Below are positions 8,049 through 9,125 of a stretch of DNA of 41,055 bases, piece by piece. Source of the stretch: a virus (lineage: Duplodnaviria > Heunggongvirae > Uroviricota > Caudoviricetes); IMG/VR virus record IMGVR_UViG_2529293142_000020; one strand, given 5' to 3'. The translations under genes were made by a program, and so were the position numbers. The notes beneath the pieces are model-generated. The model did not search any database. It was not told the origin of the DNA and saw only the letters and a list, made by a program, of their open reading frames with translations. Position 1 is the stretch's first letter, and the number at the start of each line of letters is the position of its first letter.

Positions 8049-9125
8049 ATGGCTAACGCCTGGCTCAGATTATGGCATGACATGCCAAACGATCCTAAGT
8101 GGCGAACAATTTCCAGGGTGTCAGGACAGCCAATCGCAACAGTGATGGCTGTGTATATCCACCTCCTGGTGAGCGCGTCACGAAATGTTACGCGAGGTCA
8201 CATTGATGTCACGACAGAAGATTTGGCAAGTGCGCTCGACGTGACAGAAGAGGTAATTGATTCAATTTTGCAGACGATGCAGGGGCGGGTACTTGATGGT
8301 GATTTAATCACTGGATGGGAAAAACGCCAGGTGCTTAAAGAGGACAACGGCAATATTTCGCAAACCGCAAAATCTCCTGCAGAGCGCAAGAGGGCGCAGC
8401 GAGAGAGGGAAAGAAAGCGGGAACAAAATGGCGATTGTCACGGCGCGTCACGAAATGTCACGCACATGTCACGACGAGTCACGACAGATACAGATACAGA
8501 TACAGATAAAGATACAGATCAAGAAGATCAAAACACTATGGTCCATGGCGTAAAAAACGCCATGAACCAGGCAGGGGATGTTCAGACCGTCAATCCTGGT
8601 CAGCCAGCAGGCACGACACCGGAAGCCGATTCAGCGTATGCGCTGAAAGCCGATTCGGGCGCTGTGCAGCAGGTGATGACCGCAAGGCCGGAGCAATCGC
8701 ACCCACTGCAGCAGCCTGAAGCCGATTCCGCCATTCAGCGGGAAGCCGATCGGGTAGTCCCGGAAAAAAACGGGCAGTCTGTGGGAAGAGTGGATTATCC
8801 GGATGTGTTCGAACAGGTCTGGCGGGAGTACCCGTTGCGTGCCGGGGCAAACCCGAAGAAATCCGCTTTCAGTGCCTGGAAGGCCAGATTACGCGAGGGG
8901 GTGCCACCAGAGGCCATGCTGGATGGCGTGAGGCGTTACGCAAGATACCTGGCGGCTACCGGGAAAACGGGAACGGAATTTGTTCAGCGAGCGACGACGT
9001 TTTTGGGACCGGACCGGAATTTTGAGAACCCCTGGTTGCTCCCGGTAAGCGGTACGAACAACCAGCGTTGTGTGAATCATATTTCTGAACCGGATACCGA
9101 AATTCCACCGGGCTTCAGGGGGTAA
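8049..9125 (+). CDS. Putative replication initiation / replisome organiser protein (O-like) with internal repeats
   Basis: First large gene after the cro/cII-like genes; SD AGAGG before the ATG at 8049; contains iteron-like DNA repeats and a TDTDTDKDTD linker, as lambda O contains ori. Confidence 0.55.
   Translation: MANAWLRLWHDMPNDPKWRTISRVSGQPIATVMAVYIHLLVSASRNVTRGHIDVTTEDLASALDVTEEVIDSILQTMQGRVLDGDLITGWEKRQVLKEDNGNISQTAKSPAERKRAQRERERKREQNGDCHGASRNVTHMSRRVTTDTDTDTDKDTDQEDQNTMVHGVKNAMNQAGDVQTVNPGQPAGTTPEADSAYALKADSGAVQQVMTARPEQSHPLQQPEADSAIQREADRVVPEKNGQSVGRVDYPDVFEQVWREYPLRAGANPKKSAFSAWKARLREGVPPEAMLDGVRRYARYLAATGKTGTEFVQRATTFLGPDRNFENPWLLPVSGTNNQRCVNHISEPDTEIPPGFRG
8173..8520. repeat. 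Candidate origin of replication: iteron-like repeats plus GATACA tandem repeat
   Basis: 22-bp direct repeat GCGCGTCACGAAATGT(T/C)ACGC at 8173-8194 and 8443-8464; GTCACG copies at about 10-bp spacing (8177, 8187, 8197, 8208 and 8438, 8447, 8457, 8468, 8478); (GATACA)3 GATAAA GATACA at 8487-8520. Confidence 0.5.

Follow-up and report, generated by a model that had tools for sequence, protein, structure and literature searches.

We analyzed a window of 41,055 nucleotides of viral DNA (IMG/VR record IMGVR_UViG_2529293142_000020) which, by the annotation of its gene content, is a lambdoid prophage. The genes and sequence features considered here are listed in Table 1; a protein with an exonuclease domain is also encoded in the window. 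Along its entire length, the replication initiator gene matched PHROG 3729 (phrog_3729; E = 2.7e-251), a family named 'replication initiation protein'. A Pfam search of the initiator returned no family at E <= 0.01, indicating that it is not a homolog of lambda O. The first-pass annotation of this DNA had called the gene O-like, a description that we propose to keep in the sense of a functional analog of O but not in the sense of common descent. We found no gene for a helicase or a helicase loader anywhere in the 41 kb window. The initiator gene was matched over at least 80% of its length in 1,647 of 5,426 complete E. coli genomes, and isolated, functional phages, including Tritos, Evi, vB_EcoS-640R1, and others, carry the module at 95-97% identity. 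When we looked for plasmids in which the module might be the only replicon, the matches were to large plasmids, misassigned chromosomes, and phage-like circles of ~51 kb.

Table 1. Genes and sequence features of the 41,055-nt window, in window coordinates.
Feature	Position	Strand	Remarks
Integrase	1-1020	minus	window annotation
cI-like repressor	6775-7182	minus	window annotation
cro	7298-7555		window annotation
cII/YdaT-like gene	7552-7977		window annotation; precedes initiator gene
Replication initiator gene (358 aa)	8049-9125	+	ATG at 8049, GAGG ribosome-binding site upstream
Iteron cluster 1	8176-8214	+	exact units at 8177 (CGTCACG) and 8208 (TGTCACG); one-mismatch units at 8187 (GTTACG) and 8197 (GTCACA)
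Inverted GTCACG copy	8240-8245	-	single copy, 32 bp downstream of cluster 1
Iteron cluster 2	8436-8483	+	five tandem (Y/A)GTCACG units, all exact GTCACG: 8437, 8447, 8457, 8468, 8478
(GATAMA)n microsatellite plus GATCAAGAAGATCAAAACACTA	8484-8537	.	candidate DNA-unwinding element, directly after cluster 2
Imperfect palindrome	8539-8569	.	13-nt arms, 5-nt A loop; just after the AT-rich tract
DUF977/LygF	9166-9588		next gene after initiator

The initiator gene contains two clusters of (Y)GTCACG units spaced at 10-11 bp. The four units of cluster 1 are separated by 10, 10, and 11 bp, and those of cluster 2, which lies ~260 bp further downstream, by 10, 10, 11, and 10 bp; Tandem Repeats Finder reported a period-10 array at 8436-8486. 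Eight exact copies of GTCACG fall within 307 bp, where about 0.14-0.2 would be expected from the window-wide density of the motif (Poisson P about 1e-11). The remaining 18 copies are dispersed over the 41 kb window, and no further GTCACG cluster was found elsewhere in it. From the sequence, about nine phased GTCACG motifs had initially been noted, and the count of seven exact and two one-mismatch copies on the + strand, at 10-11 bp, bears this out, except that the units form two clusters and not one continuous array. Among 72 close relatives from IMG/VR, the five units of cluster 2 were almost invariant, and the GTTACG at 8187 proved to be a private C>T change, as GTCACG occupies this site in 71 of the 72.

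Each cluster also includes one copy of a longer repeat, consisting of two units and their spacer, at 8173-8193 and 8443-8463. The two copies had been recognized in the first pass but given a length of 22 bp; we find a 21-bp repeat, identical at 20 of 21 positions. The copies are 270 bp apart and hence lie in the same reading frame, and both encode ASRNVT.

The tract that adjoins cluster 2 is 69% AT and, on the + strand, 69% purine. It begins with the hexanucleotide microsatellite (GATACA)3-GATAAA-GATACA (8484-8519; period 6, 6 copies, 93% matches by Tandem Repeats Finder), present just as first described, with its encoded TDTDTDKDTD. By nearest-neighbor free energy, no 45-mer of the gene is less stable than the one beginning at 8488, which is also the AT-richest and stands at the 99.3 percentile of the window; GATC sites are found at 8517 and 8526. 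It had been suggested that the microsatellite might vary in length between isolates, and it does. We measured the distance between fixed anchors in the 72 close relatives from IMG/VR and obtained lengths of 112, 118 (the commonest), 124 (the window), 130, and 142 bp, that is, steps of 6 or 12 bp. The window allele, (GATACA)3-GATAAA-GATACA, is rare in this set. The tract encodes a TD/KD linker, and its AT-richness could be a by-product of the Lys, Asp, Thr, and Glu codons used there; in one relative, L152, the analogous tract is only about 50% AT.

To place these features on the protein, we used an AlphaFold model of residues 1-144, built from 60 sequences (pLDDT 77.5). The initiator is laid out as a winged-helix N-domain (~aa 1-127), a disordered linker (~aa 128-235), and a helical C-domain with a DnaT-like tail. 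In the model, helix alpha1 (aa 29-45) is followed by a loop (46-55), alpha2 (56-63), alpha3 (67-77), a hairpin wing (78-88), and a basic helix (110-127), with residues 128-143 predicted to be disordered (pLDDT below 50). The predicted recognition helix, alpha3, is acidic. The fold of the N-domain is that of a DnaD-NTD-like winged helix. At the sequence level, PF09681 (Phage_rep_org_N, the N-terminal family of SPP1 gp38) matched end to end at E = 0.0099, below its gathering cut-off, and was also matched by 9 of 60 relatives, the best at E = 3.3e-4; at E <= 1, the only Pfam families matched by the N-domain were PF09681 and an HTH family. Public annotations of relatives read 'phage replisome organizer'.

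The C-terminal half yielded less. The last 22-25 residues (..SEPDTEIPPGFRG) match the C terminus of E. coli DnaT with E = 0.02-0.07, and NCBIfam gave only a weak match, to the same DnaT tail. There was no match to PF17948 in the window protein, and no usable homolog except the DnaT tail came out of PDB sequence searches, whether these were run with the full protein or with a profile of the N-domain or of the C-domain. The model of the C-domain was poor (pLDDT 58), and its fold search gave no informative match.

Given the layout of the model, the two clusters occupy distinct parts of the protein. Cluster 1 encodes residues 43-56, which are predicted to form the loop between alpha1 and alpha2 of the winged helix, and cluster 2 and the microsatellite would fall in the disordered linker. 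Together, cluster 2 and the AT-rich tract encode residues 130-163, which connect the winged-helix domain to the C-domain; the linker peptide encoded by cluster 2, CHGASRNVTHMSRRVT, is predicted to be disordered and contains the motif in all three frames.

The repeats are under constraint at the level of DNA, independent of what they encode. Because the units are spaced at 10-11 bp, all three reading frames are used, and the motif is translated as CH, SR, and VT. We permuted synonymous codons in 2000 shuffles with the amino-acid sequence held fixed and found that 2.2 copies of the motif are expected compared with the 8 observed, a number reached by 0/2000 shuffles. When the same test was applied to relatives, an excess of the motif was found in 6/7, at 0-1/2000 shuffles. 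Aeromonas phage pAEv1818 and Pseudomonas phage phi1, whose N-domains are about 70% identical to that of the window protein, have retained both GTCACG clusters in place. We then considered degenerate codons for which the amino acid is conserved in the Escherichia, Aeromonas, and Pseudomonas phages. Identical codons were used at 8/12 of these inside cluster 1, compared with 8/60 outside (Fisher P = 3e-4).

The number of units differs between relatives. Cluster 2 has three units in the Aeromonas phage, four in the Pseudomonas phage, and five in E. coli. An insertion of 21 bp, or two units, lies within cluster 1 in two E. coli prophages, and in some other relatives as many as 22 aa are inserted in the loop, all of them iterons in translated form. 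All of these differences in copy number are whole units. A comparison of repeat number across related prophages had been proposed when the repeats were first noticed, along with the possibility that they are conserved only through the protein they encode. Repeat number does vary, and conservation through the protein alone is contradicted by the shuffles, by the codon comparison, and by the persistence of the motif at ~70% N-domain identity, as well as by more distant relatives, in which another motif occupies both sites.

To follow the repeats across the wider family, we scanned one genome per species and obtained 63 loci, distributed over Gamma-, Beta-, and Alphaproteobacteria, Acidobacteria, and other groups. 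Each gene was scored for a single 6-mer that forms at least three adjacent pairs at 10-11 bp within the first 620 bp. This level was reached by 44 of 65 analyzable genes, compared with 0.4% of synonymous shuffles, and the other 21/65 family loci had fewer than three phased pairs. The two-cluster layout is likewise kept in 44/65 relatives. As controls, we scored 31 segments of other long open frames in the window; one had enough phased pairs (four), and it is presumably the initiator gene itself, whose score equals it. Units are located at about 117-182 and about 345-476 of the gene. Relatives have 3-4 exact GTCACG units at the place of cluster 1, and the copy number of cluster 2 ranges from 2 to 7 across the family. 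The AT-richest 45-mer of the gene starts between -25 and +40 bp from the end of the last unit in 47/52 loci with phased repeats.

Across relatives, the sequence of the repeat changes with its cognate initiator. The motif falls into classes that follow initiator subfamily, GTCACG (the largest), GTAACG, GCAACG, and CGAACG(C), and a change of class affects both clusters together. The CGAACG(C) class comprises a spring-water virus and many relatives from Beta- and Alphaproteobacteria and Acidobacteria. Other relatives have GTAACG or GCAACG, with GCAACG found in Ralstonia phage Hennie.

The N-domain and its repeats travel as one module, to which various C-terminal halves and downstream partners are joined. 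The same N-domain with GTCACG repeats is joined to a helicase gene in an Aeromonas locus (L001) and to a P-like protein in a Pseudomonas locus (L002), and in two E. coli prophages (L003 and L004) it has a DnaT-domain C terminus (PF17948, matched by sister initiators at E about 1e-17) followed by a P-like loader. The DNA homology of the window with mosaics that share its N-domain stops at 8506, and homology with prophages that share only its C-terminal half starts at 8530, both inside the microsatellite. The C-half relatives, an O157:H7 prophage and Shigella phage 75/02 Stx, have an unrelated N-domain. This N-domain carries repeats of its own, AAGGGGCTT, with copies at positions 185 and 196 of the gene and again at 441, 452, and 463, in 11-bp phase, followed by a (GAACAG)n microsatellite, so that the layout is the same as in the window gene. 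In phage 75/02 Stx, the AAGGGGCTT units are in the opposite orientation and the encoded peptide is different; the flip, seen between loci L152 and L153, yields unrelated peptides. The O157:H7 prophage and 75/02 Stx also have a gene for a DnaC/IstB-like ATPase after the initiator, a gene that neither the window nor the isolated phages sharing its module possess.

Other elements near the repeats were considered and given less weight. The inverted GTCACG copy was rejected as a general origin element, being present in only 15/44 family loci and in no locus of the CGAACG class. For the same reason it may merely reflect the coding of the conserved LDVT peptide, and we count it as no more than an uncertain part of the origin here. 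The palindrome after the AT-rich tract reads like a terminator on the minus strand. Relatives with the same C-terminal module keep it in imperfect form (11-12 of 13), and it is not consistently present in those with other C-modules. Because it is imperfect and tied to this C-module, its membership of the origin is uncertain; we did not uphold it as a counterpart of the ori-lambda palindrome, and regard it as a possible accessory origin element. A DnaA-box-like sequence picked out by eye at about 8153-8161, TATATCCAC, was dropped, as the Aeromonas and Pseudomonas relatives use other codons there. An Rfam scan of the region found no RNA family, and promoters and terminators were predicted about as often as chance would give.

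We propose that positions 8176-8537 serve, with high probability, as the origin of vegetative replication of this prophage and so lie within the gene for its own initiator. We read this candidate as an origin because its anatomy matches that of ori-lambda and SPP1 oriL, both of which are experimentally established. Upon derepression, rightward transcription from the cro-side promoter would lead to production of the 358-aa initiator, and its winged-helix N-domain, by analogy with O and gp38, would bind the (Y)GTCACG units. As these units lie one helical turn apart, the bound proteins would be aligned on one face of the DNA, and the nucleoprotein complex formed on them could bend or strain it. 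The adjoining purine- and AT-rich (GATAMA)n tract would then melt, and the C-domain would recruit host DnaB-DnaC, both steps again being modeled on the known systems. The host proteins would be needed because the phage encodes no helicase or loader of its own; in relatives, this C-terminal domain travels with a phage DnaC-like loader. Several observations count against this reading: the recognition helix is predicted to be acidic, the AT-richness may stem from linker codons, 21/65 family loci fall short of three phased pairs, the PF09681 match is sub-threshold, and lambda offers no parallel to cluster 1.

Could the repeats instead serve the protein, as a loop and linker peptide with a TD/KD spacer that has no function as DNA? 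The 21-bp repeat is in frame and gives ASRNVT twice, and the microsatellite encodes a plausible flexible linker where disorder is predicted, as such a role would have it. However, the motif is read in three frames, as CH, SR, and VT, at a spacing of 10-11 bp that is not a multiple of 3; it is in excess over synonymous shuffles, with synonymous sites frozen across genera; its copy number changes by whole units; and the L152/L153 orientation flip yields unrelated peptides. A purely protein-level role is thus strongly disfavored, and we hold it to be very improbable. A second possibility accepts the repeats as DNA binding sites but assigns them to control, through autoregulation, a block to transcription, or pairing of the clusters, with the origin located elsewhere. 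Control iterons of plasmids loop or pair, and two clusters 260 bp apart could do the same; in addition, no AT-rich tract adjoins cluster 1. But the 41 kb window has no other cluster of the motif, the least stable DNA in the gene comes after cluster 2 consistently across the family, and the design matches two experimentally proven origins within initiator genes. We therefore consider it unlikely that the repeats act in control alone, and a control role for cluster 1 would be compatible with the region being an origin.

The region might also be chiefly a recombination junction for the exchange of N- and C-modules, in which the repeats persist by promoting shuffling. Homology breaks off at 8506 and picks up again at 8530, both within the microsatellite, two unrelated N-domains reach the same C-domain through a hexanucleotide microsatellite, and the length of the tract is polymorphic, all of which would fit such a junction. 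Recombination nevertheless leaves unexplained the phased, subfamily-specific 6-7-mer, the second cluster, and the synonymous constraint, and as the main function of the region we judge it to be quite improbable. More likely, recombination here follows secondarily from the placement of an origin in a linker between domains, a placement shared with lambdoid O genes.

If the origin reading is right, it may extend beyond this prophage. Unrelated N-domains share the layout, and loop insertions consist of extra iteron units, which together suggest convergence. It is possible, albeit doubtful, that a general rule holds for many prophage initiators, with one phased cluster in the binding-domain loop, a second at the domain junction, and a length-variable hexanucleotide microsatellite that acts at once as unwinding element, linker, and preferred crossover point, and whose length would tune initiation.

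The initiator module is very common, yet its origin is undescribed in the searchable literature. In that literature, which does not extend to subscription-only journals, we found no description of these iterons and none that pairs GTCACG with iterons, and a paper on the replication regions of non-lambdoid Stx phages makes no mention of repeats or origins. An origin with defined specificity classes leads to testable predictions for prophage induction and replication, and the signature of two phased clusters and an AT-rich tract could be used to annotate origins in this family across Proteobacteria and Acidobacteria. The matched variants of initiator and iteron also provide a natural set for examining how a winged helix reads a 6-7 bp site. 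Finally, the locus offers an example of a DNA element that dictates part of the sequence of a protein.

Iteron plasmid origins, such as those of P1, R6K, and pPS10, combine a Rep protein containing a winged-helix domain with iterons and an unwinding element; the iterons are typically 17-22 bp and intergenic. The window resembles these origins in having a winged-helix initiator in cis and helically phased direct repeats beside an AT-rich tract, and in the way the repeats change with the initiator. It differs in that its units are ~10 bp and within coding sequence, and neither fold nor sequence gave evidence here for a RepA-type tandem winged helix. With E. coli DnaT (primosomal protein I), the window protein shares its C-terminal tail but not PF17948.

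In ori-lambda, iterons and an AT-rich tract lie in the middle of gene O, and the four to six iterons are each a 19-bp imperfect inverted repeat (PMC7466680). The first-pass annotation held that the repeats mirror this arrangement, which is true of the repeats and AT-rich tract inside an initiator gene but not of the units, which are short and direct, with a core of 6-7 bp and a spacing of 10-11 bp. Further points of likeness are the position of the repeats at the junction of the N- and C-domains, in linker-coding DNA with the AT-rich tract directly adjoining; the combination of N-half and repeats into an exchangeable specificity module, with a C-half that pairs with the helicase-loading partner; and the location of the gene right after cII in the rightward operon. 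The window protein has no sequence homology to O (Pfam Phage_rep_O), the second cluster 260 bp upstream, within the sequence coding for the DNA-binding domain, has no lambda counterpart, and the AT-rich tract consists of a hexanucleotide microsatellite of polymorphic length. The window also lacks a P gene or other loader, whereas relatives with other C-domains have P-like, DnaC-like, or DnaB genes.

The other precedent is SPP1 oriL, in which direct repeats, together with an AT-rich unwinding element, lie within gene 38 and are bound by gp38 (PMC6316719). [quoted passage not shown] Unlike in SPP1, the hosts here are Proteobacteria and Acidobacteria, the Pfam score is under the gathering cut-off, no genes for a gp39-type loader or gp40-type helicase lie beside the window gene, and no second origin with the same repeats is seen in the window. 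We conclude that the locus probably represents an iteron origin within an initiator gene of the wider gp38 'replisome organizer' lineage, and not one of the lambda O family.

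Insertions of 7–22 aa are found in the α1–α2 loop of the winged-helix N-domain in initiators from relatives that share this domain family (loci L003, an E. coli prophage, L090, L114, L115, and L134). The inserted peptides are extra iteron units, translated, and thus the amino acids at these loops appear to be set by the DNA element. Within the window, the second unit of cluster 1, at 8187, reads GTTACG, whereas 71 of the 72 close relatives compared at the initiator gene have GTCACG; one iteron of the window has therefore undergone a C>T substitution that is synonymous and private to it. 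The same N-domain is joined to HNH endonuclease domains (PF01844, PF14279) in the metagenomic proteins P0042, P0060, P0063, and P0078.

Features located in the window and in two loci sharing only the C-domain half of its initiator.
Feature	Sequence	Coordinates	Strand	Remarks
Initiator gene	L152	1981-3072		unrelated N-domain, window-type C-domain
Initiator gene	L153	1894-2982		unrelated N-domain, window-type C-domain
Small overlapping ORFs (two)	window	6272-6556, 6553-6744	-	between repressor and left operon
GATC (Dam) sites (two)	window	8517, 8526		within AT-rich tract
Imperfect palindrome	window	8539-8569		13-nt arms, A5 loop; just 3' of AT-rich tract
Mutator/IS256-family transposase ORF	window	12457-13665	+	PF00872, E = 9e-120; within prophage early region

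The unrelated N-domain of L152 and L153, from an O157:H7 prophage and Shigella phage 75/02 Stx, has phased repeats of its own, AAGGGGCTT, which in the Shigella phage lie in inverted orientation. The layout is that of the window, with two repeat clusters followed by a microsatellite, (GAACAG)n in these loci. Directly 3' of both initiator genes, which encode the same C-domain as the window protein, is a gene for a DnaC/IstB-like ATPase. No helicase or helicase-loader gene was found 3' of the window initiator (9126-12000) or elsewhere in the whole window. The window protein ends in a DnaT-like tail, SEPDTEIPPGFRG, suggesting that the phage initiator uses host DnaB-DnaC directly. Among other genes in the window, the transposase ORF is probably an IS insertion, and the two small ORFs look, by eye, like a putative ParE/RelE-type toxin and its antitoxin.

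The palindrome scores as terminator-like on the minus strand, where its tail is the pyrimidine-rich complement of the microsatellite, and it is retained at 11–12 of 13 matches in relatives with the same C-module. Most close relatives also keep both GATC sites, a pair that may recall, by analogy, the GATC sites in the 13-mers of oriC.
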